This document shows positions 1,211 to 64,000 of a stretch of DNA of 64,000 bases, one piece after another (position 1 is the first letter of the stretch; each line of letters begins with the position of its first letter). The stretch is from an uncultured Methanomassiliicoccales archaeon (lineage in GTDB: Archaea; Thermoplasmatota; Thermoplasmata; Methanomassiliicoccales; UBA472). The stretch covers positions 2,048,001-2,112,000 of the forward strand of contig OY968769.1 of assembly GCA_963695345.1 (NCBI GenBank). The letters are read 5' to 3'. The notes beneath the pieces are model-generated. The model worked only from the letters and a program-made list of their open reading frames with translations, had not been told where the DNA came from and made no database searches. A program made the translations under genes and the position numbers.

Positions 1211-2271
1211 ATGGATGTGGGTATTGTAAGCTACGGGGCGTACGTGCCAAGATACAGGATCGGGCCACAGGAGATCGGCCGGGTCTGGGGCGCGGATGGG
1301 GAAATGATGTCCAAGAACCTTCTGATCTTTTCCAAGTCCGTCCCGGCCCCCGATGAGGATGTCATAACCATCTCCGTGGAGGCGGCACGCGCCATGATGC
1401 GCGCGGACCAACGTGAACCCCCAGGACATCGGGGCGCTGTACGTCGGTTCGGAATCCCACCCCTATGCGGTGAAACCGACCGGAACCGTCGTCGCCGAGG
1501 CCATCGAGGCCTCGCCGAACCTGACCGTGGCCGATTTCGAGTTCGCCTGCAAGGCCGGAACGGCCGCCATCCAGGTATGCATGGGACTGGTCGGCTCGGG
1601 CATGATCAAGTACGGCGTGGCCATCGGCGCCGACACCTCCCAGGGCGCACCCGGGGACCCGCTGGAATACTCCGCCTCGGCCGGCGGCGCCGCCTACCTG
1701 ATCGGTTCCCGCGAGATCATCGCCAAGATCAACTCCACCTTCTCCTACACCACCGACACCCCCGACTTCTGGAGGCGGGAGGGTCAGCCCTACCCGTCCC
1801 ACGGCGGGAGGTTCACCGGCGAGCCGGCATATTTCAAGCACGTCTCCGCCGCGGCCAAGGGCCTGATGGAGAAGGTCGGGCTCGAAGCCGACCGACTACC
1901 AGTACGCCGTGTTCCACCAGCCGAACGGTAAGTTCCCGATGCGGGTGGCAAAGCAGCTGGGATTCACCGAGAAGCAGATCGAGACGGGCCTGCTGACGCC
2001 GGTCATCGGCAACACCTATTCCGGTGCCGTCCCGCTGGGACTGGCGTCGGTGCTGGACGTGGCCGCCCCGGGCGACCGGATCTTCGTCGTGGCCTACGGT
2101 TCCGGCGCGGGCGCGGACGGTTTCGACATAACCGTCACCGACAATATCTCCGGCTACCGGCGGGAGGAAGCCCCCACGATCAAGCAGATGCTGGAGAACA
2201 AGAAGTTCATCGATTATGCCACGTACGCGAAGTTCCGCGGCAAGATCAAGCTCAAGGAGGGATCCGAGTGA
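1211..2271 (+). CDS. Archaeal hydroxymethylglutaryl-CoA synthase, split by two apparent +1 frameshifts (about 1405 and 1884)
   Basis: Three consecutive frames join into GAYVPRYRI...[11 protein letters not shown]...EFACKAGT (catalytic Cys)...FHQPNGKFP...GNTYSG...YGSGAG. Confidence 0.9.
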
Positions 2272-3434
2272 GAGAGGTAGCGGTCATTGGAATCGGCGCC
2301 ACCAAGTTCGGCGAGCTGTGGGACCTGTCGTTCCGCGAGATCGGCATGCAGGCGGGATTGGCGGCGGTCTACGACGCCAACCTGTCCGGCGAGGACATCG
2401 ACGCCCTGTACGTGGGCAACATGTCCGCCGGCCGTTATATCCAGCAGGAGCATGTGGCGGCGCTCATCGCCGACTACTCGGGCATGGCCCGGGACAACAT
2501 ACCGGCGACCCGGGTGGAGGCCGCCGGGGCGTCCGGGGGCCTGGCGCTGCGCCAGGGCTACATGGCGATCGCCTCGGGAATGCATGACATCGTGGTCGTC
2601 GGCGGAGCGGAGAAGATGACCGACGTGGGCGATGCCGAGTCCAACGAGATCCAGTCGTCGGCCGCGGACGAGCAGTGGGAGGTGACGTTCGGAGCGACGT
2701 TCCCGTCGCTGCACGCCATGATAGCGCGCCGGCACATGCACGATTTCGGCACCACCCGCGAGCAGATCGCCCAGGTGGCGGTCAAGAATCACAAGCACGG
2801 TTCGCTGAACCCGAAGGCCCAGTACCAGAAGGAGATCAACCTGGACACGGTGCTCAGGTCTCCCCTGGTCTCGGACCCGCTGGGCATGTTCGACTGCGCC
2901 CCGAACTCGGACGGGGCGGCGGCGGTGGTCCTGTGCGCCATGGAGAAGGCCAAGAAGTACACCGAAACACCGGTCAAGATCCTGGCATCGGGGCAGGCGT
3001 CCGATACGCTGGCGCTGCATCACCGCAACAGCATCGTCGGGTTCGACGCCACCCGGGTCGCGGCCGAGCGGGCCTTCAAGCAGGCCAGGCTGACGGCGAA
3101 GGACGTCAACTTCGCCGAGGTCCATGACAACTTCACCATCTCGGAGATACTGGCCATCGAGGACCTGGGCTTCTTCCCGAAGGGGGAGGGCGGAAAGGCC
3201 ACCATGGACGGGCAGACGCTGCTCGGCGGGAAGATCGCCATCAACACCTCCGGCGGTCTTAAGGCCAGAGGCGACCCGATCGGGGCCACCGGGGTGGCAC
3301 AGATCGTCGAGGTCGTCACCCAGCTGCGCGGTCAGGCGGGAAAGCGCCAGGTCTCCGACGCGAGGGTCGGACTGGCCCAGAACGTGGGTGGGACCGGCGC
3401 CACCGCCGTCGTGCACATCCTGGGGGTGGCCTGA
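2268..3434 (+). CDS. Archaeal acetoacetyl-CoA thiolase-family protein with substituted catalytic residues (G87, N288, D336)
   Basis: Full thiolase fold (GAEKM, DGAAA, SGGLKA, QNVGG) between HMGS and DUF35. It has EAAGASG instead of EAACASG, HDNF instead of HDCF, and GDP instead of GHP. Confidence 0.9.
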   Translation: MREVAVIGIGATKFGELWDLSFREIGMQAGLAAVYDANLSGEDIDALYVGNMSAGRYIQQEHVAALIADYSGMARDNIPATRVEAAGASGGLALRQGYMAIASGMHDIVVVGGAEKMTDVGDAESNEIQSSAADEQWEVTFGATFPSLHAMIARRHMHDFGTTREQIAQVAVKNHKHGSLNPKAQYQKEINLDTVLRSPLVSDPLGMFDCAPNSDGAAAVVLCAMEKAKKYTETPVKILASGQASDTLALHHRNSIVGFDATRVAAERAFKQARLTAKDVNFAEVHDNFTISEILAIEDLGFFPKGEGGKATMDGQTLLGGKIAINTSGGLKARGDPIGATGVAQIVEVVTQLRGQAGKRQVSDARVGLAQNVGGTGATAVVHILGVA

Positions 3435-3839
3435 TGACCACGGCCAGGTTCTGGAGGGAGAACGCGTCCCGGTACAACATGATCGGCGCCCAGTGCACGG
3501 TCTGCGGGAAGGTGCACTTCCCCCCGCGGTCGGTGTGCCCCACCTGCCACCGCAAGTCCATCGGGAAGACTGCAGCCTATCCGGCTGAAGGGCGATGGGG
3601 AGATCTTCTCCTACACCGTGGTCCACGAGGCCCCGTCCCAGTTCGAGATGCAGAAGCCATACGTCATGGCGATCATCCGGATGAGGGAAGGGGTGATGGT
3701 CACCGGCCAGGTCATCGATCTCGACGCCAACGACCTGGAGATCGGCATGAAGGTCAGGGCCACCATGAGGAGGCTGGGATCGGACGGGCCCGACGGGGTC
3801 ATCCATTACGGCTACAAGTTCGCGCCGGTACGGCAGTAG
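3434..3839 (+). CDS. DUF35 Zn-ribbon/OB-fold scaffold of the thiolase-HMGS complex, apparent +1 frameshift about 3569
   Basis: CTVC...PPRSVCPTC Zn ribbon. Removing one base restores GKLQPIRLKGDGEIFSYTVVH...YGYKFAPVRQ*. Confidence 0.85.
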
Positions 3840-3860
3840 GGTCGGCCAGTACAACTTAAA

Positions 3861-3884
3861 CCCTTTTCCTTTCACTTCTTTTCC
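3861..3884 (+). terminator. Pyrimidine/T-rich archaeal terminator
   Basis: CCCTTTTCCTTTCACTTCTTTTCC just after the DUF35 stop. Confidence 0.5.
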
Positions 3885-4604: not shown

Positions 4605-7600
4605 TCATTCGACGGTAATCTCGAACTCGGATTCGAACCCTACCTGCTCCTCGGAGAGTACCGATTTGCACGACAACATCAGCTTCAGGGCGATATCGCC
4701 GGATATCCGTGGCTGGATCAGCACATCGATGGTCTTCTTTTCGCCCTTGGGCAGCCGTTCGATGTCGATGAGCCCCTTCACATCCACCTCTCCGACGATC
4801 TCCAGTCTGATATCCCGGGCCGCGGCGATGCCGTCGTTGCTGACATGCAGGCGGAACTTCGCCCAGGCGCCTTTCTTCGGTTCGTCGAGGAAATCGATGT
4901 CGATGCCGATGTCCGGCATCATCTGCTCTTTCTGCTCATCCACTTTCGCGATTGCCTGATGGAGGAGGTCCAGCCCCTGCTTGGCGTCTATGCTGCGCAG
5001 GGCGTCCGCCTTCTTCAGGAGCTGCTCCGCCGCGATCACTGGCATGCCCTGTGCCCGGACATTGTCCAGCTCCGCCTTGACCTTGTTGCGGACCTTCTTG
5101 AACTCCTCATTGGCGGCCGTGGCCACCCCGATGAGCCGCTCGCTCTTCTGCAGGGTCCGGAACGCCTCGCCCATGTCCTGTATCAGCAGCCCCCCGGTCG
5201 CGCTGGTGTACAGGCCCTCGCTCATGTTGACATCCAAGCCGGCCTTCCTGGCCTTGTTGATCCCTTCCGCCACCTTCAGGCGTTTGCGTCCGAACTCCTC
5301 CAGGACCAACTGGCGCATGGTACGTACCCCGATGCTCAGCGTCTCCAGGTCCTTCGAGCTGAAAACGCCTCCCCTGTCCTCCTGGAGCTTGAGCACGCTG
5401 GGGGCCAGCTTCGACCGGTCGTAGCCGATCTCGTTCAGCAGCTTGAACAGCTTGGTCAGCTCCGCGTAGTTACGCTCGGACTCCCGGCCGGCGATCTCCT
5501 GGAGCAAGGCCTTGGTCCGGTGAAGGAACAGCGATGATCTCTCGAAATCCAATGATAGCAGGGCCTCGTCCGCCTGGTCCAGGAGCATTTCCATGCTGGT
5601 CCGTTCCTCGCTCTCCTCCAGGAACTGGAAGTCGTGCCGGAGGGACTGCATCTCGTTCATCCTGGCCTCGAACATCTCACGCAGCTGGGTCAGTTCGTCC
5701 CGGCTGCGCATGGCCAAGGCGCTGGCCTCCGCGAAGGCATTGGCCTTCAGCTTGTCCTCGGCCTTGGTCAGCAGCTGCCTCAGGTCTTCCGAGAAGACCC
5801 CGGAGGCGGCCGCCTCATCGAACTTGGCCCGCACCTCGACGATGACCTTCCGGGCCGAGTCCCTGATATCCCTTACCTTGACAAGCTCGTCCTCATAGGT
5901 GCGGACCAGGGGGAGCACGTCACGGAACCGGCGCTGGTTGATGCGCTCGTTGATGTCCTTGCGGATACGGTCCACGATGACCAGGTCCGGTCCCTCCAGC
6001 TCTTCCCTTCGGATCTTCAGGTCGCTCTCTTCCAGCTTCCGGGAGATCATCATGTCCATGAGATGGGCCGCCTGGTCCACGGCGCGTTTCGAGAGTTCCA
6101 TGGCCAGCGGGTGGTTGCCCTGCTTCTGTATGATGCGGGCCTGATTCATGATCTCCAGCGCCGGCGAGACGTTCACGCCCAGGTCCTGGATGGCCTTGAG
6201 CGTGGCCATGGTCCGCTCGATCTGCTCGTTGGCCTTCTGCTCCATGAGCATCAGCTGGTCCAGTTCGCCCCTGGTCATCTGGGCTGCCCGGAGGGCTTCC
6301 AGGTAGCGTTTCTCCTCCAGCAGGCTGGTCGATTTCAGCAGTATCTGTTGCGGGGAGTTGGTGTCGATGCCCGCCGCCCTGGTTCTGTCCAGCAATGATC
6401 TGCACAGGTTGATCTCGCGCAGGATCCCGGACGCCAGCTGGCTCCTGATGAGCTCGATCCCGCCGTTCATCGTCTTAAGCGAGGTCAGGTGCTCATTCTT
6501 GTTCTCCTGCTCGATCGCCGCCTGTATCGACGATTCCGCGGACGAAATGTCCAGCCCGAGCGTTTCCATGGCCATGACCAGTTCCTTCGCCTCCTCTATC
6601 CTGCGGGCTGCCATGAACGGGGCCACGATGACCTCGGTCTCGGCGTACGAAGCGGTGGACGCGGCCCGGGCGTCCCCGTATCTTCCGCTCTCGAACATGC
6701 GCTTGGTCTTCAGGAGCAGGTCGGTGGCCTTCCGGGTGTCTATGCCCTTGGAGTCCGCCTCCTCCAGGAGATTGGAGATCTCCACTATCCTATCGTAGAT
6801 CTCCACGTGGACGCTGGTCAGCTGTCTCAGGCTTACCTGGGCCTCCTTGAGATTATCGAAGGCCTTCTCGAACGAGCCCTGCTTGAGGGCCCGGCCGGCC
6901 TCCTCCAGGAGATGTTCGGGCTTCATGACCTCGACGCCCTTCTTGCGCTCCAGCGAGATGGAGCGGGACGTGGAGGCCATCTCCCGGGTGAGCTCGTCGA
7001 GGATTATGGAATGTGAGAATTGGATGACGTCGTTGGCGGTGCGGAGGGCGACCATGGTGTTGTTCTTGGCCTTCATCTCCTCCGCCCGGGCCAGCTTGTC
7101 CTTGAGGGTGACGCTCTCGCAGTTGAGCTCCTTGAGGATGCCGAGCATGCTATGGGCCTCCGCCATGCGGGTCTCCAGGGCCTGCTTCTCCTCCCGGTTC
7201 AATGACTCGGCCGCCTCGGCCGCCAGGTCATAGGCGTTGACGAACTCGTTCCTCTCCGCCGCCTTGCGGGCCTGTTCCAGCATTGTCGTGGCACTGCTCA
7301 CGTCCATCGATCCCTTGTACATGTCCAGGTTAGCCTTGCCCTCGTCCAGGGCCTTCTGGACCTGGAAACGCAACTTCGCGTCGATGGTATCGGAGCATTT
7401 GGCGAGGAGTTCCGGTGCGACCGTGAACTCCCCCTTCTTGATGAGGTCGACGATCCTCTCCAGCATGCTCGTCTCGTCGTTCACGTCCACCCCGATGCGG
7501 AGAGCTCCGGCGAACTTGATCTCTATCGCCATGACATCCTTGGCGTAGTGCTCCTCGAGCTGCTTGTTCAGCTCCGAATGGGCCTCCCTGAGCAGGCCTG

Positions 7601-8939
7601 AGGCGCTGACAAACTCATGCGCCAGCGTCGCCCTCCTTGCCGAGTCCATGAAGCTCTTGGCGGTGGACGTATCCAGTTTCAGCTCGTCGGCCCGGTCCAT
7701 GACCGCCCTGGTCTTGAGCAGCTCGGATTCCAGGTCGGCCAGGCCCTTGAGGGCGGTGCCGATCTCGTTCTCGGCCGCCGAGATCTGCGCCATCGCTTCC
7801 TCGATCTCTGAGCTGGACAGGTGTGCCCTCGCCGCCTCGATCTTATTGGAAGCGCTTCCCAGGTCGATTCCCAGGCGCTTGGCGATGAGCAGTGAAGGGC
7901 GCAGCTTCAGCAATGCCTCGGAGATCAGGCCGGTCTCCTTGTCGCGCAGGGCGGTCTTCACGGACCTCGTCCCTTCGAGGGCCTCGTTGAACTTGAGGTC
8001 CTTGAGCAGGTCCTTCTGCAGACCGATCTGGGAGACAAGGTCCTTCACATCGATCCCATTCTCCTTGAGGGCCGTTCCTCTCTTGCGGAGCGACTGTAGC
8101 TCCGCGGCGAATCCCTTGGTGAGCGCCTTCTGCTGTTCACCCTCGGCCGATGACAGGGCGGCGAACGCCTCCTCGAACGAACCATGGTCCAGCAGCCCCT
8201 GCGCCTTCTTCAGGGCCTTTTCGACCTTCGACAGGTCGACGGCGAACTCGGACTGGTATTTGGAGACGTCCATCATGCTTTCGGCTCGGGCCTGGAACTT
8301 ATCGGCCAGGGCCGATTCCAGCGATTCCCGGCAGGATACCAGCTTCTCCATCGAGGAGGGCACCTGCTCTTTCTCCAGTAGGTCCCTGGCCTCCGTCAGT
8401 CCCTTGCGTTCGGCATCGACCGTTATGCCCTGGCCCTCCGCCAGCAGCATGACCGTCTGGGTCTCCCCGAAGGCGGTCGCCATGAACCGGTTGACCAGCT
8501 TCTCCACCTTGTCCCAGAGGTCCTTGGACATGGCGAAGGCATCCTCCAGCGACCCCTTTGCCAGAGCCGTCTTGGCCTCCTGCGACAGGATGGACAGGTC
8601 CTCCGCCTTGGCCCCCATTCTCTCCACATGGGTCCTAAGATCGTCCGCGTCCCCGATCATGGAGGAGACCTGGTCCTTCTGCGCCCTGAACGACGCCTCC
8701 ATGCTCTTGCTGGACATGCCCACCGATGAACGGTAATCCTTTTCTCTGAAAAATGAACTGGCTTCGGTAAGGTATTTCTCTGCCTCCGCCGAGGGGGCGT
8801 CCATCCTCTTGGAAAGCTTCAGAGATATCTCTGCCTGGACGAGCTTCTCCTCCGCAGCATCGCGGCTTTTAGCTGCCTCCTTCGCTTTTTGCTCAATTTG
8901 TTTCTTGAGCTGCAGCTGTTTGATGTAATCTCCAGTCAA
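4605..8939 (-). CDS. 1444-aa helical-repeat (about 65-aa units) rod protein with C-terminal Ig/CARDB-like beta domain
   Basis: About 20 degenerate G[IVL]D-x-x-A...L..A...L..G.[FY]..A units. The last ~105 aa are beta-rich (LHVSNDGIAAARDIRLEI...LPKGEKKTIDVLIQP). No TM segment or signal peptide. Confidence 0.8.
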   Translation of the reverse strand: MTGDYIKQLQLKKQIEQKAKEAAKSRDAAEEKLVQAEISLKLSKRMDAPSAEAEKYLTEASSFFREKDYRSSVGMSSKSMEASFRAQKDQVSSMIGDADDLRTHVERMGAKAEDLSILSQEAKTALAKGSLEDAFAMSKDLWDKVEKLVNRFMATAFGETQTVMLLAEGQGITVDAERKGLTEARDLLEKEQVPSSMEKLVSCRESLESALADKFQARAESMMDVSKYQSEFAVDLSKVEKALKKAQGLLDHGSFEEAFAALSSAEGEQQKALTKGFAAELQSLRKRGTALKENGIDVKDLVSQIGLQKDLLKDLKFNEALEGTRSVKTALRDKETGLISEALLKLRPSLLIAKRLGIDLGSASNKIEAARAHLSSSEIEEAMAQISAAENEIGTALKGLADLESELLKTRAVMDRADELKLDTSTAKSFMDSARRATLAHEFVSASGLLREAHSELNKQLEEHYAKDVMAIEIKFAGALRIGVDVNDETSMLERIVDLIKKGEFTVAPELLAKCSDTIDAKLRFQVQKALDEGKANLDMYKGSMDVSSATTMLEQARKAAERNEFVNAYDLAAEAAESLNREEKQALETRMAEAHSMLGILKELNCESVTLKDKLARAEEMKAKNNTMVALRTANDVIQFSHSIILDELTREMASTSRSISLERKKGVEVMKPEHLLEEAGRALKQGSFEKAFDNLKEAQVSLRQLTSVHVEIYDRIVEISNLLEEADSKGIDTRKATDLLLKTKRMFESGRYGDARAASTASYAETEVIVAPFMAARRIEEAKELVMAMETLGLDISSAESSIQAAIEQENKNEHLTSLKTMNGGIELIRSQLASGILREINLCRSLLDRTRAAGIDTNSPQQILLKSTSLLEEKRYLEALRAAQMTRGELDQLMLMEQKANEQIERTMATLKAIQDLGVNVSPALEIMNQARIIQKQGNHPLAMELSKRAVDQAAHLMDMMISRKLEESDLKIRREELEGPDLVIVDRIRKDINERINQRRFRDVLPLVRTYEDELVKVRDIRDSARKVIVEVRAKFDEAAASGVFSEDLRQLLTKAEDKLKANAFAEASALAMRSRDELTQLREMFEARMNEMQSLRHDFQFLEESEERTSMEMLLDQADEALLSLDFERSSLFLHRTKALLQEIAGRESERNYAELTKLFKLLNEIGYDRSKLAPSVLKLQEDRGGVFSSKDLETLSIGVRTMRQLVLEEFGRKRLKVAEGINKARKAGLDVNMSEGLYTSATGGLLIQDMGEAFRTLQKSERLIGVATAANEEFKKVRNKVKAELDNVRAQGMPVIAAEQLLKKADALRSIDAKQGLDLLHQAIAKVDEQKEQMMPDIGIDIDFLDEPKKGAWAKFRLHVSNDGIAAARDIRLEIVGEVDVKGLIDIERLPKGEKKTIDVLIQPRISGDIALKLMLSCKSVLSEEQVGFESEFEITVE

Positions 8940-18398: not shown

Positions 18399-18961
18399 AT
18401 GACGTTGATCAGAAAATGGAGTACATCGGAGCATTTCTCGAGTTGCCTGCTGATAGGGCGGTTCCAACCATTCCACAAAGGACACTTTGAAGTGGTGCGG
18501 TCAATCGCCAAGAAATGCGACTCGTTGATCATAGGCATCGGCAGCGCGCAATATTCGCACACCTACGACAATCCGTTCACCGCCGGGGAGAGGCATCTGA
18601 TGATCTCCCGGGCATTGAAGGAAGAGGAATTGGGGGAGTATTTCCTGGTGCCGATCGTGGACATCAATCGCTATTCCGTGTGGGTATCCCACGTGGTCTC
18701 GCTCGTGCCGCCATTCGAGGTGGTGTTCACCAACAACAATCTCACCCGCAGACTGTTCTCGGAAGCGGAGTATCAGGTCAGGGACTCACCGATGTTCAAC
18801 CGGGAAACCTACTCGGGAACCGAGATAAGGAGAAGGATGTCCGAGGGGGATGACTGGAGGGACCTTGTGCCCAATGCCGTGGCCAAGGTGATCGACGAGA
18901 TCGACGGGGTCAACCGCATAAGGGACCTGACCCCCCGGACAAGGACGAAGGTGGAAGATGA
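18399..18961 (+). CDS. nadM: Nicotinamide-nucleotide adenylyltransferase (3' end uncertain, probable indel in a C6 run about 18931)
   Basis: IGRFQPFHKGH, GSAQ, NPFTAGER, SGTEIR, W..LVP. Confidence 0.9.
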
Positions 18962-19426
18962 CTCTGGCGCAGGAATCTTGGGAATAAGGCCAAGGGCAGG
19001 GGGGTTACCATATCCCTGGCGGAATCGATCACCGGCGGTCTCTGCAGTGACCTGATCACCAATGTCCCCGGTTCGTCGGGCTATTTCCTCGGCGCCGTTA
19101 TCTGCTATAGCAATAGTTCCAAGGTCGAGCTCCTGGGGGTCAAGGAGGCGACCATCGCCTATCAGGGGGCGGTAAGCGAACAATGCGCCCTGGAGATGGC
19201 CGTAGGTGTCAGGAACCGTTTCCATTCGAACCTCGGCGTCTCGGTGACGGGCATTGCTGGTCCGGGGGGCGAGAGGCCGGGAAAGCCGGTCGGTCTGGTA
19301 TACTTTGGCGTCGATGACGGGGATAACATCTGGACGGAGAGGATGCTGTTCGAAGGCGATCGTGAGGCGATCAAACGGTCCGCGGCCGAGCACTTGATCG
19401 GACTGATCATCAAAGCGCTAGGCTGA
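18958..19426 (+). CDS. CinA C-terminal / NMN deamidase (PncC), apparent +1 frameshift about 18976
   Basis: Removing one base gives MTLAQELGNKAKGRGVTISLAESITGG...VPGSSGYFLG...YSN..K...GAVSE..A..MA...SVTGIAGPGG...KPVGLV...GDR. Confidence 0.85.
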
Positions 19427-19505
19427 GCGGTCAGAACGGCGACCCTAATAATAACCCCAACATTTTTAATCAGAGTACCCACATAATGGTTCAGGATGGA
19501 AGGGT

Positions 19506-20351
19506 ATGGGTGCACCAGTGAAACGGATTCCGACAGGAGTGGCTGACTTCGATAATATAATCAGAGGCGGCATGCCCATTGGTTCCGTTGTCTTGCTCCT
19601 GGGAGACCTGGGAGCGGGCCAGCAAGAATATGTGCTGACCTCGGCGGCCAAGATATCCCTCATTAAGGAGAACCCGGATTCGGCCGAGTTCTTCCTGGGA
19701 CACAGCGTCAAAGGGCAAATGATGCCGGAGTCCATCCACTACATCACATTCTCAAGGTCAAAGGAGGACATCCTTCAGGAGCTGGAGCTGTCCTTCAACG
19801 AGGACTTCTATGAATCGTTCGAACGCAACGTGAAGTTCAAGGACTTTTCCTCGAAGTACTTCAGGCAAACGCTGGTTCCCAAGAGCTGGTCTGGGGACAC
19901 ATCCTCCGCCCTGTTCTCCAGCAACAGCGACGAGGAGGGAGTACTGGAAGGGCTGGTCAACTACCTGGACCAGAACGCCCCCCGGAGCATGGTGATAATC
20001 GACTCGCTCACCGACCTGGTGCTGAACCAGAAGATCGACCCCAAGGACCTGGTGGCGGTGCTCCGCGGCATGCAGCGGGTGAGCAAGAAATGGGGCGGCG
20101 TGGTCTATCTGCTGCTGACCAAGGACATCATCGACGAAAGGATGCAACGGATGATCACCGATTCGGTGGATGGGGCTCTGGTGTTCGAATGGAGCCGCTT
20201 CGTCACCTCCTCCAAAAGGCAGCGCTATCTCTACGTTGAAAAATTCATGAGCATCCTGCCCCACTTGGATAGGGCGCGCATCGCGAGGTTCGCGACCACG
20301 GTCACCGCGCAGAGCGGCCTGGTGGTCATCGATACGGAAAGGATCGGGTGA
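19506..20351 (+). CDS. RAD55/KaiC-like protein with degenerate Walker A
   Basis: IPTGV..FD..I.GG start, but the P-loop reads GDLGAGQQ (no Lys). VIIDSL and DG motifs are retained. Confidence 0.8.
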   Translation: MGAPVKRIPTGVADFDNIIRGGMPIGSVVLLLGDLGAGQQEYVLTSAAKISLIKENPDSAEFFLGHSVKGQMMPESIHYITFSRSKEDILQELELSFNEDFYESFERNVKFKDFSSKYFRQTLVPKSWSGDTSSALFSSNSDEEGVLEGLVNYLDQNAPRSMVIIDSLTDLVLNQKIDPKDLVAVLRGMQRVSKKWGGVVYLLLTKDIIDERMQRMITDSVDGALVFEWSRFVTSSKRQRYLYVEKFMSILPHLDRARIARFATTVTAQSGLVVIDTERIG

Positions 20352-52817: not shown

Positions 52818-55800
52818 CTATGACCTCTTCCGCCAGTTCCAAACGATGTTGCCGACGATCAACAATAATGCGACACCCATCCCGGCATAGCTGAGCCAGT
52901 AACCGATCTGCATGTTGTTCTGTCCGGTGTAGTAGAGGTTGAGGGATATGTTGCCATTGCCCGTAACCACGTACCCGTTGATTATCCCATCATCGACGAA
53001 GTGTCCCTGCACGGTCCCATCGCTGGCTGTGAGGACCCATTTCTGATCGTAGCTTTCCCTGAATGCCACTATGGCCTGCCCGCTGACGTTGGTCATATCG
53101 ATCCGGTACTCCACCGAGCTGATCCGGATGAACGATATGTCGGAGTTCTTTGGGGAAAGCATGGTGGTCGTGAGGTCGACCTTGTCGCTGGCGAGGACTC
53201 TCACGTTGTCCAGCCAGCATTTCCAAGTTTCCGAGTCGTTGTTCTTCAGATCGAAGCTTATGTCCACCCGCCCATAGACTGCGCCAGCCGGCACTTCGAG
53301 GCTTGTCTGGTTCGATCTCCACAGATTCCATATGCTCCTTTGATCGATGGTCATGTTCGTCTGTGATATCAGATCGTTATTCTCATCCAGATAGCTGACC
53401 TGGACCAACGGTATGGTCAATCCGTAGGGCAGGGAATCGGCGGTTATGGTGTAGGTCTTGTTCTGATCGAAAGCGAATTCGTCGGAGATTATCTGATACG
53501 TTTCGACCCCGGCGATGGTCTTATTCTGCTGGAACAGAAGCGCATAGACTCCATCCATGTAGTTGTCCTGGTTCGTGTAATTGGAAATCGGGGACCTGAC
53601 GGGTACTGAACCATTGACACTGTAGTACACCTGCCACCCTCCGTACCCGTAGTCGAATGAGGGATTGCTCAGGACATTGATACCGAACTTGTACACCGTC
53701 TTCGTGGTCAGCAGACCCAGGGCATCCGTCCTGGCCGAGTCATAGCTTTCCGCGGACACGATGGATATCGCCGAAATGCCGTTGAAACCAGCAATATTCT
53801 TCAATGAAACGGTGACCGTTTCCCCATCGACGGCGACCATCGGTATCTTAGCCAGCAAGAACCCGTCATAACCGTCGTAGGTTTCAATGGTCTGGTCGAC
53901 GCCATTGGTGGTGACCTGGATCGTTCCCCCCTGTTCGTTTGCGAAATACCTCAAGATAAGATAGGAATTTCCGCTATGGTCAGGGGTGATCTCGAAGTTC
54001 ACCTGATCCGTAGAGCCAATGGTGTAGACCACGCCTCTATTGAAATCGAAGTCGAAGGAATACTGCGGCCAATTGACATAAGGGTGCCAGACGTTCTGGT
54101 GAGGGTCCCAATAACTGCCCTTGGACCACTGGGTGGTCGGATTGAAATTGACCACCTGGTCGTACGGGAAGATGGTGGTCATGTTGCTGCCCGCAGTGAC
54201 CATGGCCTCCATGTATGTCAGGCCCTCGATCATCTGGCTATCGGTCTTGTCAGAAATGATGATGGGGGCCGCGCTGATCGCCTTAAGGCTTACGTCCTGT
54301 CCAATGAAATCATATGAGAAGTCGTTTGAATATCCGGTGCTTTTCATGAACTGGTCCATCAGGCGGTATCCGCCATCGGCCAGGACCAGGTCCTGGTTGG
54401 TCGATATCCGGTAGTCGGCCTTCAGATTCTTGAAGATATACACCATTCCCTGATGGAATACTTCCAGGAAAACCGAGGAGTTCTCCATCTTCGAGATCAT
54501 CGGCTGGACCAGGCCTTGTAGCTCCTTTACGTCGTTATGGATCACCAGATATCCAATGTTCACAAAGCCACAGAAAGCGGCCAGGGACTCCACGTCCTGA
54601 TTGTGGAACAATGAGGAACTGTACTTAGTGTCCAGCGCAAAGTACCCGAAGTGGTTCCAATTGGTACCGAAAAGGATCGTTGGGACCGAGGATGAGAATG
54701 TCCAGATATCATTGGAGCCGACCGTTGAGCTCCAGACCGGTTTATATGACCCGTAGTCCGGCAGGTAGACCGCTCGATAGTCCTCTCCCACGGAATCCAG
54801 ATAGTTCCACGCATTCTGGAACTCGACCGGCACATCGGCCGGACCTGCGTTCGCGGCGGGATTGGTAAATAGCAATGGCCAGGAATACGCCGAGACCAGC
54901 AGGATGAAGACGACGAGGAAGGCGATCAACGAGACCCTTCTTTGCTTTCCGAAGAGTTTGAACCTGCGGCCCTTGACGAAGCGAATAATGGATACGAAGG
55001 TGAAGCCGCAAAGGACCGTCAGCGAGATCGCAATCAGTGCGTCCGAGACCCTCCATGTCCTGAACGCCAGGCCTATGGGTGTATTGAAGAACAGGTATTC
55101 GTGAATTCCCTTGAACGGACTGTCGACGTAAAAGAAAAGGATCGAAAATACCAACAGGATCGCATAGAACAGGACCTCGTTGTATCTTGAGTAACGATAT
55201 ACCGCAAAGAAAGCGGCAGCCGTGATCAATATCGTCGCCGGGACCAGATAGTTGAGGAATGAGAAGGGGTTGCTGGTGATCACATAGTAGGAACCCAGGT
55301 CCATGTGCGAGCTGGCGAGCAGCATATTGAACATGGTGGCGTGGCCCCATGGAACGCTCAGCCCGGTGGTGGACAGCGCCAGACCCTGGGATGATGTGGC
55401 CGTCAGCCTGAAGATGAGCCGATAGGCGATAAGGGAGACGAACAGGAACATCACGCCGAAAAAGGCCACCGTCGGGGTCACCAACTTCTTCTTCCAACTC
55501 CCCTTCCTGGTGGTGATGCAGAAGAACATGTAGAGGAATAGAATGATGGGGAATCCTGCCCAGATGAAATGCTCATCCACGTTGAACGCCATCAGTATGG
55601 CGCAGATCGGCAGATAGACCCATTTGTTGTCCAGGGCCGTCTTGGAGAACGCCCAGATGATCCAGGGAAGGCTGGTCAGGGACAATTGGATCCCCACCCA
55701 ATAGCTGTCGCCCAGGAAGTATGAAGGGTTAAGCCCATAGATCAGCGATCCAAGGAACGCCGCAGCGGTGATCGTGAGGGAATCATCCATTCGCTTGCTT

Positions 55801-56210
55801 AGATAATAACGGATCAGTATGAAAGCCCCGAGGAAGGCGAAGAACTGGAACGATAGTTTCTCCAGCGCGATGATGCCCACGGTCTGCAGGCCCAGGGCCT
55901 GACCGATTATCCAGAAAGAGGTGCGGAACGAAAGGGGGTCGAGACCGAAGGAACCTCCCGAATAGTAATCGTTCCAGGCATAGTTACCCAGGCTGCCTAA
56001 CGGGGGAATGTAGTTCTTTGCGATCACCGCTTGGTTCTCGGGTATCATGAACACCTTGAGATTTCCCGCGATTCCTGCCTCAAGATAGGTCAGATTGCAC
56101 GCGACGGTGATGATGATGAGTATCGCGACGACCAACCAGAAGCGTCTATCTAGACCTAAGAGGTCGAAACGCTTTCGTACACCGGTGATCGCGCTATTGA
56201 AAACTGCCAA
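52818..56210 (-). CDS. 1130-aa multi-TM GT-C-like protein with extracellular carbohydrate-binding-like domains
   Basis: N-terminal TM array, YRAVYLP, NPSF..G..GW CBM-like segment, FRESYD..W...H...G..NGY and a final TM helix; same architecture as 42141..44579. Confidence 0.65.
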   Translation of the reverse strand: MAVFNSAITGVRKRFDLLGLDRRFWLVVAILIIITVACNLTYLEAGIAGNLKVFMIPENQAVIAKNYIPPLGSLGNYAWNDYYSGGSFGLDPLSFRTSFWIIGQALGLQTVGIIALEKLSFQFFAFLGAFILIRYYLSKRMDDSLTITAAAFLGSLIYGLNPSYFLGDSYWVGIQLSLTSLPWIIWAFSKTALDNKWVYLPICAILMAFNVDEHFIWAGFPIILFLYMFFCITTRKGSWKKKLVTPTVAFFGVMFLFVSLIAYRLIFRLTATSSQGLALSTTGLSVPWGHATMFNMLLASSHMDLGSYYVITSNPFSFLNYLVPATILITAAAFFAVYRYSRYNEVLFYAILLVFSILFFYVDSPFKGIHEYLFFNTPIGLAFRTWRVSDALIAISLTVLCGFTFVSIIRFVKGRRFKLFGKQRRVSLIAFLVVFILLVSAYSWPLLFTNPAANAGPADVPVEFQNAWNYLDSVGEDYRAVYLPDYGSYKPVWSSTVGSNDIWTFSSSVPTILFGTNWNHFGYFALDTKYSSSLFHNQDVESLAAFCGFVNIGYLVIHNDVKELQGLVQPMISKMENSSVFLEVFHQGMVYIFKNLKADYRISTNQDLVLADGGYRLMDQFMKSTGYSNDFSYDFIGQDVSLKAISAAPIIISDKTDSQMIEGLTYMEAMVTAGSNMTTIFPYDQVVNFNPTTQWSKGSYWDPHQNVWHPYVNWPQYSFDFDFNRGVVYTIGSTDQVNFEITPDHSGNSYLILRYFANEQGGTIQVTTNGVDQTIETYDGYDGFLLAKIPMVAVDGETVTVSLKNIAGFNGISAISIVSAESYDSARTDALGLLTTKTVYKFGINVLSNPSFDYGYGGWQVYYSVNGSVPVRSPISNYTNQDNYMDGVYALLFQQNKTIAGVETYQIISDEFAFDQNKTYTITADSLPYGLTIPLVQVSYLDENNDLISQTNMTIDQRSIWNLWRSNQTSLEVPAGAVYGRVDISFDLKNNDSETWKCWLDNVRVLASDKVDLTTTMLSPKNSDISFIRISSVEYRIDMTNVSGQAIVAFRESYDQKWVLTASDGTVQGHFVDDGIINGYVVTGNGNISLNLYYTGQNNMQIGYWLSYAGMGVALLLIVGNIVWNWRKRS

Positions 56211-59412: not shown

Positions 59413-60375
59413 TCACGGACTTCCGCCGTCGCCCGACCGGACCTTTGAGGCATAGAACCTGTTGAATATCCATTTGTACACTCGGTTGGGGATCGCCAGC
59501 ATGGGCACGTCGACCAGCCAGAAGCTCGGGTAGGATCCGAAGGACCGTCTCATTAGACCGAACAGCTCGGAGTCCACCTTCAATCCGTTCACCTTGGCCC
59601 AGGAGATCTCTCGCACATAACGGCCTTTGATCACGAAATCACCGTTCCTCTTGATCTGGTGCGAATAGCCCAGGTCTTCCATGCCGGAAAAGAGCTGGAC
59701 AAGTTTGAGACCGACCTGTAAGGATGTGCCGCCCTTTCCCCATCTGGCTCCTTCGCCCTGCCTCAGCATTTCGTCGGCGATGACATAGCCCTTTCTTCCG
59801 TCCTTTGGAGCCAGCGACTGGATCGAGTAGGCGAAGTGGATCCACAGACAACCATCGAACCTCTTCATGTCCAGGTCCAGCCATACCTGGCGGTTCACTA
59901 TGTTGCTGGAGACCAGGCCGTTCTTGAACTGACCATGCCTGAAGAACTGGTTACCGTCCTGGCAGAATACATCATCTGAGAGTCCCAGATCGATCCAGTT
60001 CTTGAAATTGGCGAATATCAGGGCCAGGTCGGGGTGTTTGACCATCACGTCCATGATGTGGCCGACCGATCCTGGGAGCAGGTAGTCATCATCCGAGACA
60101 AACCACACGAACTTGCCCTTTGCGTTCCGCACGATGCAATCGACGTTCGCGTCGAAGCCAACATTGACATCGTTCCTGGCGTACCTGACCAATTCGGGAT
60201 AGCGGGATTGATAGTCTTTGGCAATATTGGCGGTCTCATCGACCGACGCATTGTCCATTATCAGGACCTCGACGGACTTTCCCTCCGCTTCTTTGATGAT
60301 GCTGTCCAGCACTTCGGAGAGGAACATCTGACCGTTATAGGTGGGTATGCCTATTGTCAATACAGGAACGTTCAT
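59413..60375 (-). CDS. GT2 glycosyltransferase, RfbV-like
   Basis: LTIGIPTYN, DNAS.D, N.GFD.N, WFVSDDD, W.H. Confidence 0.8.
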   Translation of the reverse strand: MNVPVLTIGIPTYNGQMFLSEVLDSIIKEAEGKSVEVLIMDNASVDETANIAKDYQSRYPELVRYARNDVNVGFDANVDCIVRNAKGKFVWFVSDDDYLLPGSVGHIMDVMVKHPDLALIFANFKNWIDLGLSDDVFCQDGNQFFRHGQFKNGLVSSNIVNRQVWLDLDMKRFDGCLWIHFAYSIQSLAPKDGRKGYVIADEMLRQGEGARWGKGGTSLQVGLKLVQLFSGMEDLGYSHQIKRNGDFVIKGRYVREISWAKVNGLKVDSELFGLMRRSFGSYPSFWLVDVPMLAIPNRVYKWIFNRFYASKVRSGDGGSP

Positions 60376-60605
60376 GTCAGATCTCAGCCTGGTGAACCAA
60401 AAACCGCTCGGGTCCTAACCGCTTTGTCCTAATTAAATCGTGCGTTCTTCAGCATGAGGATCAACGGTGCCTGCAATGGCAGCCGTCTCAATGGTACTCT
60501 TGGAAATGAACGGACCGAACGCATCGGGCGATATTCCACCGCCCGAATGATTAGATGCTGATACATTCCGGCCAGGCATTTCCGAGGTCGAGGTCGCCCT
60601 GTCTT

Positions 60606-61658
60606 TCAGCGGACCTGGTTCCATCTTATCGTTCTGCTTATCGCGGTGTCCAGGTTGACTGTGACCTTGAGATCCAGCGTTCTGATGGCGCGGTCAACAT
60701 TGGGAACGAATTTCGATGGCTGCTCCTCGGGACCTCTGGACAGTCCGCTGATTATCTTTGGTGGGGTCGGGAAATTGGAGGCGATCTTTTGGGCCAGGTC
60801 CTGGAGGGATATCGGGTCCGGACTGCCTACATTATAGCTCTGGCCGACCTCGCCCCTGACCAGGATATTCAGTAGCCACCAGGCCATATCCGATGGGTAC
60901 ATGTAGCTTCTAACGGTCCTTCCGTCCCCAAGGATCCTGATGGGGCCTCCGAGAAGTCCGTCCCTGATGAAATTGTTGATCGCCCATGGCCTGTCCAGTA
61001 ACTGATGCGGGCCGATGAAGGCGAACGGTCGGGCGGTGACGATCGGCAATCGATGCTGGTTCCGGTAGATGGAACATATGATCTCGCCCATTCTCTTCGA
61101 CTCTGCGTAGGCTGAGCTAAATGCCCCGCAGTCCAGTCCGCCCATCATGTTCTCGGAGATCCCTTTGGTCTCCCAGGGCTGCGCGCCATAGACCAATCCC
61201 GAGCTAAGATTCAGTATCTTCCTCACATCCGATGACCTGGAGGCGTATTCAAGCAGGGAATTGGTCCCCTCGACTATGGTCTGGACGGTCCTCAGCGGCT
61301 CCGATGCGTGAACCCTCCTGTCCGGGGTGGCCGCGGCGTGGATGATGTAGGAAAAGTCAGACGGGATGTCGGTAAGGTTCCTGATGTCCCTCTCGATCAG
61401 TTGCACGTCGTCCCGTTCTGCGATATGTGGAACATTTTTCCTGAAGCTGCCGGTATTGGTTGCCAGCAGCGCCAATCTGGTCTTGAAGCCATGTTGATCG
61501 TTGAGGTAGATCACCAGCTCTGACAGCCAGGTACCAACGAAACCGGTTCCTCCGGTTATCAGCAGGGACTCATTTCTTAGAAGGTCCAATTTCTTTGTGC
61601 CGGACGAGGTGACCGCTTCCAGGTCCTGAATGACGATCTTGTGCTGAGGGTTGTTCAT
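60606..61658 (-). CDS. NAD-dependent epimerase/dehydratase/reductase (extended SDR)
   Basis: ITGGTGFVG, HAA, SSG.VYG, YAESK, R.F.F.GP, R.Y.Y..D. Confidence 0.9.
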   Translation of the reverse strand: MNNPQHKIVIQDLEAVTSSGTKKLDLLRNESLLITGGTGFVGTWLSELVIYLNDQHGFKTRLALLATNTGSFRKNVPHIAERDDVQLIERDIRNLTDIPSDFSYIIHAAATPDRRVHASEPLRTVQTIVEGTNSLLEYASRSSDVRKILNLSSGLVYGAQPWETKGISENMMGGLDCGAFSSAYAESKRMGEIICSIYRNQHRLPIVTARPFAFIGPHQLLDRPWAINNFIRDGLLGGPIRILGDGRTVRSYMYPSDMAWWLLNILVRGEVGQSYNVGSPDPISLQDLAQKIASNFPTPPKIISGLSRGPEEQPSKFVPNVDRAIRTLDLKVTVNLDTAISRTIRWNQVR

Positions 61659-62674
61659 TGGACTTTCCTTCCCTTCATGGACGAAAGCTGCGCCGCGACC
61701 TCTATGATGATATCTTCTTGGCCTCCGACCACCTGCCTTCGCCCCAATTCGAAGAAGACATCGCGCGGGTCCACGTCGTACTCCATGGAGATCCTCTCCA
61801 CCGGCTTCGAGAAACCCGAGAAGACGCCAGCCATTCCGCTGACGACGCTCAAGGACCTTATCCTCGGGATCTCCTTCATCAGTTCCTTCTCGGCCATATC
61901 GGCGGCGTCGAGCAGTCCGTAGAGGTCGATCCCGGTCGAATACCCCATTTTATCCAGGACCGCCACGAGGACCTCGACCTGGGCATTGCCAGCGCCGGCG
62001 CCGAATCCCCTTGCTGCCCCATCGATGATGGTGGCGCCCGCCTCCACCGCCGCCATGGCGTTAGCGATCCCCATCCCCAGATTGTTGTGGGCGTGGAATC
62101 CGACGGGAATATTTAATTTGCCTACCAGAAGGGAGATGCGCTCCGTTACCTGAGGAGGAAGGTATGCCCCGGCCGAATCATAGATCACCACTCCTTCAGC
62201 GCCATAGGATTCCATCTTCTGAGCCTCCACCAGTAGGACGTCCGGCGAGGCCATGTGGCTCATCATGAGGGCCCCGACGGCCTCTTTGCCCTTCGCGCGA
62301 ATAAAACTGATATGCCTCTGGGTAACGTCTGCCTCGGTGCAATGGGCGGCCACCCTGACAACGTCCACTCCCAGTTCCAAAGCCTTCCCCAGGTCCCTCC
62401 TGATCGTGGCGAAACCCGGCATGTCATGGATGGCCAGCTTTGCCGTCGTTAGGCACTTTTTGGCCTCGGTCAACATCTTCTCGTCATTGATGGCACTTAT
62501 ACCGACCTGTAATGAGGATGCTCCAAGGCCGTTCCCGTGTCCGACCTCGACGATGGGGACGCCGGCAGCGTTGGCGGCCTTAGCATAGGACGTGATCTGC
62601 TCTACCGACAATTGGTGGGCCACCGCGTGGTTCCCATCCCTCAAGGTCACGTCATGGACAGTAATTTTAGACAT
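61655..62674 (-). CDS. dmpG: 4-hydroxy-2-oxovalerate aldolase (DmpG/MhpE family)
   Basis: DVTLRDG.H, HG.GLG.SS, HCTEADV, DSAG, GFHAHNNLG, GAGAGN, VGGQED. Confidence 0.93.
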   Translation of the reverse strand: MSKITVHDVTLRDGNHAVAHQLSVEQITSYAKAANAAGVPIVEVGHGNGLGASSLQVGISAINDEKMLTEAKKCLTTAKLAIHDMPGFATIRRDLGKALELGVDVVRVAAHCTEADVTQRHISFIRAKGKEAVGALMMSHMASPDVLLVEAQKMESYGAEGVVIYDSAGAYLPPQVTERISLLVGKLNIPVGFHAHNNLGMGIANAMAAVEAGATIIDGAARGFGAGAGNAQVEVLVAVLDKMGYSTGIDLYGLLDAADMAEKELMKEIPRIRSLSVVSGMAGVFSGFSKPVERISMEYDVDPRDVFFELGRRQVVGGQEDIIIEVAAQLSSMKGRKVQ

Positions 62675-62699
62675 GGACCATCCTTAATAGGCCGCACCT

Positions 62700-63581
62700 T
62701 TATTTGTTCATTATGATTTGTTTGGCGAATCGTTCGGCCATTGATATTCCAGCGCAGTTGATAATATCCATGTTCCCGGCATATTTCGGAAGGTAGTCCC
62801 CCATACCCCTGACTCTGACCATCACGACCACCCGGTTCGCCTCGATCGTCGGAGCGACCAGCAGATTGTATCCCGGGACATATTTCTGGATCTTAGCGAC
62901 CATCGAATCGACCTCCTCCCTGAGACGTGCCATGTCTGGCCGCTTCACCTTGGCAAAGACCGTAGTCTGCATGTCGATCGAGGGGTTGGCCGGATTCAGG
63001 ATCAGGATGGCCTTTACGTTCTGGCAGCCGGAGAACTTCCTCAGTCCCCTCTCGGTGGTGTCCACATACTCGTCCAGGTTCTGTCTCGTTGCCGGACCGG
63101 CACTCCGGGAGGCGATGCTCGAGACGACCTCGATATACTCCACGTCTTCCTGCGTCCTTCCGATAACGTTAGCCAGCGGTATCGATGCCTGCCCCCCGCA
63201 GGTGATCATGTTGATATTGTCATAGTCCAGGCATTCGTCCAGATTGATCGCCGGAATGCACATCTCGCCGATCCCGGACGGGGTCATGTCAATGACCTTC
63301 TTGTTCAGCTTCTTAAGGATCGGCCAGTGTTTGCTGTGGTCCATCGCCGAGGTGGCATCGAAAACAACGTCGCAGCAATCGGGATTCCTTTCGATCGCGT
63401 CAATGCTCAGGTCAGACACCTTGACCCCCAGGCTGTTCGCCTTGTTCATTCCTGGCGTCCCCAGGTGGCGTCCGATGAACAGCGAACACTCGATGTAGGG
63501 GGATCGCATCGTTTTGACCAAGAGGTCCGTTCCGATGTTGCCGCTGCCTAGGATCGCTACCTTGACCTTTTTGGTGTTCAT
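62700..63581 (-). CDS. dmpF: Acetaldehyde dehydrogenase (acylating) (DmpF/MhpF family)
   Basis: GSGNIGTDL, FDATSA, NMITCGGQA (catalytic Cys), SAGP.TR.N.DEY, G.GDYLP.YAGN. Confidence 0.95.
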   Translation of the reverse strand: MNTKKVKVAILGSGNIGTDLLVKTMRSPYIECSLFIGRHLGTPGMNKANSLGVKVSDLSIDAIERNPDCCDVVFDATSAMDHSKHWPILKKLNKKVIDMTPSGIGEMCIPAINLDECLDYDNINMITCGGQASIPLANVIGRTQEDVEYIEVVSSIASRSAGPATRQNLDEYVDTTERGLRKFSGCQNVKAILILNPANPSIDMQTTVFAKVKRPDMARLREEVDSMVAKIQKYVPGYNLLVAPTIEANRVVVMVRVRGMGDYLPKYAGNMDIINCAGISMAERFAKQIIMNK

Positions 63582-63608
63582 TATGCAGCACCCACAGTGT
63601 CTCGAGGT

Positions 63609-64000
63609 TCACTTGCATCCTCTGCGGACGTTACAGGCCAGATATTCTTCCCTGGGAAGGAATGGGAACATGTCGTCGTAAGGCATGGACCTCATGGTTC
63701 CATCCTCCAGCTTCTTCGATGCGATCCTCGGGATCAGTATCTGGTTCGGCGGGTTCATGACCTCGATGATCATCGGTCCATCCTCGGTGAACATCGGCAT
63801 TATGGACGATTCAAGGTCATCAGTGGCCTCTATCCGCATATACTTCAATCCGTAGGCATCAGCCAGCTTAGACAGGTCGGGGAAGCTCACGCCATTGGAC
63901 TCGTCCGTCCCAATATGGCGGCCTCCCTGGAAGTTGTTCTGCGTCAATCGGATCAGGAGGTATCCGTTGTTATTCAGGACGATCAATTTGATGGGAAGCT
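63609..64000 (-). CDS. Thiamine-diphosphate-dependent enzyme (acetolactate synthase-like / YerE-like), C-terminal part, partial
   Basis: LPIKLIVLNNNGY (end of the ThDP motif), GVSFPD..KLA.AYG, DG.M.S.P..DMFPFLPREE. Confidence 0.85.
   Translation of the reverse strand, partial: LPIKLIVLNNNGYLLIRLTQNNFQGGRHIGTDESNGVSFPDLSKLADAYGLKYMRIEATDDLESSIMPMFTEDGPMIIEVMNPPNQILIPRIASKKLEDGTMRSMPYDDMFPFLPREEYLACNVRRGCK

Follow-up and report, generated by a model that had tools for sequence, protein, structure and literature searches.

Closest to the gene cassette addressed in this study is the erwiniose cluster of Pectobacterium atrosepticum SCRI1043, which, according to Steitz et al. 2022 (PMC9306805), encodes the thiamine diphosphate (ThDP)-dependent enzyme ErwE, the reductase ErwF, the BphJ-like ErwJ and the BphI-like ErwI in addition to the genes for cytidine diphosphate (CDP)-4-keto-3,6-dideoxyglucose. 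In that source, ErwE used 4-hydroxy-2-oxopentanoate with a preference for the (R) form, and pyruvate was not accepted. In the yersiniose A pathway of Yersinia pseudotuberculosis (DdhA-D, YerE and YerF), YerE takes pyruvate and a two-carbon branch is introduced; the ketoreduction step of this pathway is referred to as uncharacterised in PMC4753412, where YerF is not mentioned. For JanthE of Janthinobacterium, a CDG motif and donor promiscuity are described in a 2025 review (PMC12247030), which also cites an in silico survey by Krug et al. 2024 with more than 200 YerE-like clusters. Here, a related cassette was analyzed in a stretch of 64,000 nucleotides from an uncultured Methanomassiliicoccales archaeon (hereafter the window; G000:C1:2048001-2112000, corresponding to contig OY968769.1 of assembly GCA_963695345.1). 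Features beyond its end are given in window-equivalent coordinates (G000:C1 position minus 2048000), and the 20 kb past window position 64000 were also searched for genes. The cassette encodes a YerE-like ThDP enzyme, an acylating acetaldehyde dehydrogenase of the DmpF type, a pyruvate aldolase of the DmpG type and a short-chain dehydrogenase/reductase (SDR) of 350 residues (SDR350), and a second SDR of 294 residues (SDR294) adjoins it. Probably, this is an erwiniose-type gene set directing the synthesis of a CDP-activated 3,6-dideoxyhexose whose C4 bears a four-carbon branch derived from an acyl unit. It is located in a surface-glycan island of a methanogen, is probably of bacterial origin and has probably moved between methanogen lineages.

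Like the erwiniose cluster, the archaeal locus combines a YerE-like ThDP enzyme, a BphJ/DmpF-like and a BphI/DmpG-like protein, one or two candidate NAD(P)H-type reductases, the ddhA, ddhB and ddhC genes of CDP-4-keto-3,6-dideoxyglucose formation and a nearby glycosyltransferase. The original prediction, made from the bare sequence of the window, had placed DmpF/DmpG homologues in the Pectobacterium cluster; this was correct, the homologues being ErwJ and ErwI (PMC9306805). The pathway was thus already published for erwiniose in 2022, and the archaeal cassette is not a new pathway. In contrast to the erwiniose cluster, the host is a methanogenic archaeon instead of a Gram-negative bacterium with lipopolysaccharide (LPS), ddhD/E3 is missing, and two SDRs are encoded, so that an isomer or derivative may be formed instead. 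With the yersiniose A pathway, the locus is predicted to share the CDP-3,6-dideoxy-4-keto acceptor, the ThDP-dependent branching at C4 and the reduction of the branch ketone. It differs from that pathway in its linked DmpF and DmpG, predicted to provide a five-carbon 2-oxoacid donor, and again in the missing ddhD. An SDR294-type gene next to the ThDP gene is a feature shared with many YerE-like loci that are free of DmpFG. In the alignment to JanthE, the window enzyme showed the canonical GDG in the ThDP motif, as opposed to CDG in JanthE. All erwiniose papers found were bacterial by title, the archaeal-envelope literature searched contained nothing specific to this branched sugar, and no pairing of yersiniose with archaea was found in the literature searched, the cluster list of Krug et al. 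2024 lying outside that search.

A YerE-like carboligase linked to DmpF and DmpG

The gene of the ThDP enzyme extends beyond the window and reaches window-equivalent position 65399 (G000:C1:2111609-2113399). It encodes 596 amino acids with all three TPP_enzyme domains. Scores of this protein remained below the cut-offs of all NCBIfam acetohydroxyacid synthase (AHAS) models (TIGR00118: 358 bits at a cut-off of 538). Its best match in the PDB was 8RPH, the structure of JanthE (404 bits over residues 2-584), compared with 233 bits for AHAS I of E. coli. Moreover, AHAS-like genes distinct from it are present elsewhere in the genome. The ThDP enzyme was separated from these genes both in a FastTree phylogeny of 128 YerE-like proteins and three pieces of the organism's own AHAS genes (support 100) and in a quick IQ-TREE run with 38 rows (support 97). 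Judged from its sequence, the enzyme is YerE/JanthE-like and not a true IlvB; the YerE-type assignment of the original prediction, which a grouping with true IlvB would have contradicted, therefore stands. Furthermore, three AHAS large-subunit copies and an FAA_hydrolase gene are split into adjoining pieces in different frames (G000:C1:1585525-1589135, 587535-589164 and 1156887-1157493). In this genome, which consists of a single contig and is rated 85% complete, these look like assembly indel errors rather than real pseudogenes; the open reading frames (ORFs) of the cassette are intact.

From a scan of species genomes, the best 80 of at least 597 ThDP relatives were used. Three scans together provided a set of 154 ThDP-matching loci, in which 128 distinct proteins were at least 450 aa long. 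The window enzyme belongs to a clade of 20 rows (clade A), recovered with a support of 97 by FastTree (128 proteins) and 100 by IQ-TREE (38 rows). DmpF and DmpG adjoin the ThDP gene in all 19 other members of this clade. In 17 of these 19 loci, the gene after DmpG is an SDR350 orthologue (43-66% identity); the two exceptions are L003, which stops at a contig end, and the Micrarchaeota locus L018, which carries an SDR294-type gene instead. In most clade-A loci, rfbF, rfbG and rfbH were found near the cassette. The linkage of the ThDP enzyme with DmpFG recurs in at least ten bacterial phyla and in archaea. Four columns of the ThDP alignment (78, 124, 421 and 423) distinguish DmpFG-linked enzymes from the rest; being confounded by relatedness, they serve as a lead only.

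YerE-like ThDP genes also occur in further archaea, namely Micrarchaeota, Methanotrichaceae, a second Methanoregula, Methanobacteriaceae, Bathyarchaeia and Pacearchaeota (L018, L039, L048, L076, L082, L087, L139 and L147). Except for L018, these loci are free of DmpFG, and they are dispersed among bacterial branches with at least five changes of the label 'archaea' in the tree. In bacterial cassettes, additional genes were observed: a Geobacteraceae metagenome-assembled genome (MAG) encodes radical SAM/SPASM and B12-radical SAM proteins (L006:5017-6105 and 18501-20075), and FkbM-type methyltransferases are located by the cassette in Microcoleus and in a Pseudomonadota genome (L019:9012-9959 and L182:4547-5473). 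These extra tailoring genes point to further modified branched sugars.

The aldolase pair and the CDP-sugar genes

Both members of the aldolase-dehydrogenase pair exceeded the cut-offs of their families (Table 1), the aldolase additionally matching NF006049 (446 bits, cut-off 229) and containing the DmpG_comm domain. The pair resembles catabolic DmpG/DmpF and BphI/BphJ (1NVM, 4JN6 and 8IH7) in fold families, metal-binding and catalytic residues and in the DmpG communication domain for aldehyde channelling. It differs from them in an identity of 41-48%, in its separate clade, in His and Phe in place of Leu-87 and Tyr-290 and in the lack of catabolic neighbours; moreover, its predicted direction is synthetic and its predicted stereochemistry opposite. 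In the DmpG tree, 25 ThDP-linked and six background copies formed one clade (support 95), and 15 classic catabolic copies were placed apart (support 99). The window aldolase accordingly falls with copies from sugar clusters, the alternative grouping with catabolic copies having been named in advance as evidence to the contrary. The background sample consisted of 301 Pseudomonadota genomes, 24 of which contained a match and 20 a match over the cut-off. In the window genome, dmpG and dmpF are single-copy and both reside in the cassette; likewise, in five of five other cassette genomes the only over-cut-off matches to dmpG and dmpF were those at the cassette. Neither hydratase nor hydrolase nor dioxygenase genes were found in the window or in the 20 kb beyond. 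The sole match to the FAA_hydrolase family lies about 0.95 Mb from the cassette, and the same family was matched in 11 of 14 control genomes. As far as tested, the earlier observation that ring-cleavage genes are lacking was confirmed by these results.

By alignment to DmpG (1NVM), residues His83, Met85 and Phe285 of the aldolase correspond to the BphI positions Leu-87, Leu-89 and Tyr-290. At the Tyr-290 position, 26 distinct ThDP-linked DmpG sequences have Phe (24) or Val (2) and in no case Tyr. In contrast, Leu and Tyr occupy the Leu-87 and Tyr-290 positions in the PDB enzymes 8IH7, 4JN6 and 1NVM and in all 15 high-scoring classic copies of the Pseudomonadota sample (526-593 bits); one odd copy of this sample has Ile and Tyr, and six low-scoring copies (301-385 bits) are devoid of the Tyr. 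According to PMC3962088, BphI is strictly (4S)-specific, its variant Y290F loses stereocontrol and L87N/Y290F uses only the (4R) form. In view of these mutants, the Phe and His residues give the aldolase of the module the appearance of a naturally occurring equivalent of the engineered (4R) enzyme; this would fit the donor preference of ErwE.

A check for genes of CDP-dideoxyhexose formation past window position 64000 had been suggested with the original prediction. rfbF, rfbG and rfbH were identified there, all over their cut-offs, and rfbI/ddhD was found neither in the locus nor in the genome. RfbH contains the motif AHH, with His replacing the Schiff-base (pyridoxal phosphate) lysine, and the Cys pattern C-X57-C-X1-C-X7-C, which we take to be the 2Fe-2S motif of E1. 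Such a Cys pattern was present in 64 of 79 RfbH-like ORFs near YerE-like genes. DdhD-like genes were detected in only 4 of the 154 loci. In view of the missing dedicated DdhD/E3, a general carrier, for instance ferredoxin, is assumed to serve as the reductant of RfbH (E1).

Proposed pathway and alternative explanations

Based on the gene content, the following pathway is proposed. RfbF, RfbG and RfbH would convert glucose-1-phosphate to CDP-4-keto-3,6-dideoxy-D-glucose, the iron-sulfur dehydrase RfbH receiving electrons from the general carrier. DmpF would run reductively and convert acetyl-CoA to acetaldehyde, which would be handed to DmpG and joined with pyruvate to form 4-hydroxy-2-oxopentanoate, probably the (4R) enantiomer. 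Subsequently, the YerE-like enzyme would decarboxylate this donor and attach the resulting 3-hydroxybutanoyl unit at C4 of the CDP sugar, where the keto group is located. One of the SDRs may then reduce the branch ketone and the second tailor the product, e.g., by epimerisation; with such a second tailoring step, the sugar may be an isomer of erwiniose. Finally, glycosyltransferases and Wzx-like flippases of the island would place the sugar in the surface glycan. A supply of the branch donor to the ThDP enzyme by DmpFG running in reverse had already been suggested in the original prediction. This idea gained support from its agreement with the erwiniose scheme, as given in PMC9306805, from the presence of rfbFGH, from the non-IlvB character of the ThDP enzyme and from the non-catabolic DmpG clade.

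A purely catabolic role, in which DmpF and DmpG represent the end of aromatic meta-cleavage or a like route located by chance near sugar genes, with the ThDP enzyme acting as acetolactate synthase, is hardly credible. Both proteins do exceed the NCBIfam equivalog cut-offs of catabolic enzymes, and the best NCBIfam names of the ThDP enzyme are acetolactate synthases; yet the latter stays under every AHAS cut-off in a genome with separate AHAS genes, no hydratase or dioxygenase gene is located nearby, the linkage recurs across bacterial phyla and archaea, and the aldolase, which is devoid of the (4S)-fixing Tyr, belongs to a clade apart from catabolic copies. It also appears unlikely that the ThDP enzyme adds a two-carbon acetyl branch from pyruvate as in yersiniose synthesis, with DmpF and DmpG serving otherwise or acting after branching. 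This explanation is favored by the 102 of 128 distinct YerE-like loci without DmpFG, in many of which SDR294-type genes adjoin the ThDP gene, and by JanthE, the closest solved relative, which takes pyruvate among its donors according to PMC12247030. It is opposed by the complete retention of DmpF and DmpG beside the ThDP gene in clade A and by the lack of any other visible role of DmpFG in this genome. Moreover, pyruvate was no donor for ErwE, the characterised enzyme from such a context, and Steitz et al. (PMC9306805) spoke against an aldol extension that follows the branching.

Slightly more room is left for a variant with a longer branch, although it is still improbable: DmpF might take another acyl-CoA such as propionyl-CoA, resulting in a longer 4-hydroxy-2-oxoacid and a branch of at least five carbons. 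ErwE indeed converted 4-hydroxy-2-oxohexanoate to 76%, compared with 49% for the pentanoate, as reported in PMC9306805. Furthermore, the position of Leu-89, which limits aldehyde length in BphI, is occupied by Met here and by Ile, Val, Met or Leu in relatives. However, neither Met nor Ile nor Val is a smaller residue than Leu in the manner of the chain-extending variant L89A described in PMC3962088, and acetyl-CoA is the ordinary substrate of the family to which the dehydrogenase belongs (TIGR03215 over cut-off).

Several points speak against the erwiniose-type reading preferred here. The pathway is proposed for this organism from its gene content, from which the enzymatic activities are deduced, and the likeness to ErwE, ErwF, ErwI and ErwJ is one of family and context and not of direct alignment. 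Seven further DmpFG-linked ThDP enzymes, with about 41% identity to the window enzyme, fall outside clade A; since the DmpFG-linked enzymes do not form one clade, the choice of donor is not readable from orthology. A tblastn search of the 85% complete genome with DdhD of Thiomicrorhabdus as query revealed no DdhD/E3 homologue (best E = 1.3). The Leu-87 position is not uniform among the 25 readable ThDP-linked DmpG sequences, which have His (19), Phe (4) or Leu (2). Co-occurrence of the SDRs, which bears on the assignment of their steps, is mixed as well: L018 possesses only the SDR294 type and most clade-A loci only the SDR350 type. Finally, three of the six background DmpG copies without Tyr (L185 in G232, L186 in G252 and L187 in G300; all Pseudomonadota) are located away from sugar genes. 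A Pfam scan of two of these loci, L185 and L187, showed a class I/II aminotransferase gene after DmpF/DmpG, and L185 additionally encodes an ATP-grasp amino-acid ligase. With aminotransferase genes instead of sugar genes beside some of its members, the non-Tyr clade would mark anabolic use generally and not sugar use as such. The pairs at L185-L187 suggest that the aldol product has another anabolic use as well, possibly in the formation of a 4-hydroxy amino acid.

A more far-reaching version of the erwiniose-type reading has about an even chance of being correct. In this version, the envelope of a wetland Methanomassiliicoccales member would carry erwiniose or an isomer produced by the extra SDR, and no acyl-branched sugar would have been shown in Archaea before it; the module would contain a naturally (4R)-selective class II pyruvate aldolase with the His and Phe changes previously only engineered in BphI; and its iron-sulfur 3-dehydrase would receive electrons from a general carrier such as ferredoxin, no dedicated E3 being involved.

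Genomic surroundings, probable transfer and significance

The run of genes for ThDP enzyme, DmpF, DmpG, SDR and a family 2 glycosyltransferase (GT2) on the minus strand was recovered as five ORFs with matching family profiles, in agreement with the original prediction. Spacing on this strand is operon-like: the SDR350 start and the DmpG stop overlap by 4 bp (-4), and distances of 25 bp (DmpG/DmpF), 27 bp (DmpF/ThDP) and 123 bp (ThDP/SDR294) separate the following genes. A divergent spacer of 288 bp parts SDR294 (minus strand) from rfbF (plus strand). Catalytic motifs, previously noted as intact where visible, proved complete in DmpG, DmpF, the ThDP enzyme and both SDRs. In DmpG, the catalytic and metal residues R12, D13, H16, H194 and H196 are conserved, and the catalytic Cys of DmpF is situated in TCGGQA, a motif starting at residue 127. 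The ThDP enzyme features HHEQ (Glu50), GDGS at 449 and NNNGY at 476. Glycine-rich and YxxxK motifs were identified in SDR350 (GGTGFVG at 36, YAESK at 184) and SDR294 (GGRGFIG at 7, YGLSK at 126). All coordinates are compiled in Table 1.

Table 1. Genes of the cassette and its immediate neighbours, with positions in the window or, beyond its end, in window-equivalent (w.-e.) coordinates
Feature	Position	Strand	Profile match or remark
GT2 glycosyltransferase, 320 aa	59413-60375	-	PF00535, 81 bits; 230 bp downstream of cassette
Extended SDR (SDR350), 350 aa, candidate branch ketoreductase (ErwF role)	60606-61658	-	PF01370, 120 bits
4-hydroxy-2-oxovalerate (pyruvate) aldolase, DmpG/BphI/ErwI type, 339 aa	61655-62674	-	TIGR03217, 393 bits (cut-off 286)
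Acylating acetaldehyde dehydrogenase, DmpF/BphJ/ErwJ type, 293 aa	62700-63581	-	TIGR03215, 380 bits (cut-off 282)
YerE/ErwE/JanthE-like ThDP carboligase, C-terminal 129 residues in window	63609-64000	-	PF02775
SDR294, RmlD/Fcl-like, 294 aa	w.-e. 65523-66407	-	PF01370, 89 bits; PF04321, 52 bits
rfbF/ddhA	w.-e. 66696-67466	+	TIGR02623, 423 bits (cut-off 300)
rfbG/ddhB	w.-e. 67473-68573	+	TIGR02622, 473 bits (cut-off 278)
rfbH/ddhC	w.-e. 68578-69930	+	NF011936, 688 bits (cut-off 423)
Family 4 glycosyltransferase (GT4)	w.-e. 70049-71179	+	PF00534 and PF13439

The two SDRs, both with Rossmann and YxxxK motifs, flank the core of the cassette as candidates for the role of ErwF, and their co-occurrence pattern is mixed. 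In many loci devoid of DmpFG, a relative of SDR294 was found at a distance of no more than about 60 bp from the ThDP gene. Comparison with solved structures gave no assignment for SDR350, whose best match was the unnamed epimerase/dehydratase 8VR2 (102 bits; a literature search on this structure yielded no pertinent paper), followed by UDP-glucuronate decarboxylases; for SDR294, weak matches of at most 42 bits were obtained. The label 'RfbV-like', formerly given to the GT2, is unsupported, every NCBIfam match being far under its cut-off. A copy of this GT2 with 75% identity is present in the congener G005, and none was found in G002 with this query. For the GT4, copies with 84% identity are located at the same place in both cassette-bearing congeners.

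Between window positions 37908 and 59218, rmlA, rmlB, rmlC, genes for a GT4, a GT-C and three further GT2 enzymes, a Wzx-like flippase and an Fcl-like SDR were identified. Additional glycosyltransferase and flippase genes are situated on the far side of the cassette, so that its location within a glycan island, as originally proposed, was borne out on both sides. In addition, several uncommon proteins are encoded in these surroundings. A protein of 1130 aa without Pfam or NCBIfam match (window 52818-56210, minus strand) is found at the same place by the cassette in two congeners, with 76-81% identity. After it come a weakly DUF4350-like protein and a GT-C-like membrane protein of 475 aa with PIG-U/PMT_2 matches. 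Inside the island, an Mrr-type restriction nuclease domain is fused to an ATP-cone (window-equivalent 71207-72205, minus strand; L002:8207-9205), and a 69% identical copy is located at the same place in the congener G002. Two further proteins of 1444 aa (window 4605-8939, minus strand) and 553 aa (window 2214-3875, minus strand) matched no Pfam or NCBIfam family.

The archaeal nature of the host is reflected by genes for archaellin, archaeal LonB and Hel308 in the window and by mcrA and an STT3/AglB gene in the genome. The sole STT3/AglB match (G000:C1:1327864-1329216) is part of a 2180-aa open frame, longer than usual for an oligosaccharyltransferase. LonB shares 95-98% identity with proteins of uncultured Methanomassiliicoccales MAGs and about 80% with that of Methanomassiliicoccus; by its housekeeping proteins, the host belongs to the Methanomassiliicoccales and not to the Methanoregulaceae. 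The closest copies of the cassette found originate from Methanoregulaceae MAGs, with identities of 74-75% for the ThDP enzyme, 76-77% for DmpF and 70-75% for DmpG, whereas LonB and Hel308 of the same genomes are only 60-63% and 44-45% identical to the window proteins. In the IQ-TREE phylogeny (38 rows), the window ThDP enzyme and three Methanoregulaceae copies formed a clade (support 100) nested among bacterial rows (supports 96 and 99). Within the GTDB family of the window, DmpG was detected in 3 of 47 genomes, all belonging to the genus of the window (3 of its 8 genomes, the window genome being one of them). In two cassette-bearing congeners, synteny of the island extends from the 1130-aa protein through the GT4 (79-98% identity). 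The GC content of the cassette is 0.545, compared with 0.560 for the genome, and base composition provides no sign of recent import. Import of the cassette from bacteria and later exchange between methanogen lineages would be the simplest reading of these sequence relationships. The Micrarchaeota copy is the first branch of the clade, and the root within the clade is therefore not secure.

To our knowledge, the surface glycans of methanogenic archaea are almost unknown. The cassette extends a branched-sugar pathway of the bacterial LPS type, published in 2022, to these organisms. The pathway appears to travel as a compact module of ThDP enzyme, DmpF, DmpG and SDR among bacteria of at least ten phyla as well as between two lineages of methanogens. 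It is predicted that the aldolases of the module are natural (4R)-selective counterparts of BphI/DmpG, which would explain the stereochemistry of the donor and might make them possible biocatalysts. Moreover, most of these organisms are predicted to manage E1-type 3-deoxygenation in the absence of a dedicated E3 reductase. A DmpFG pair whose aldolase is devoid of the Tyr is predicted to mark anabolic use, which would correct automatic annotation as aromatic degradation or acetolactate synthase.

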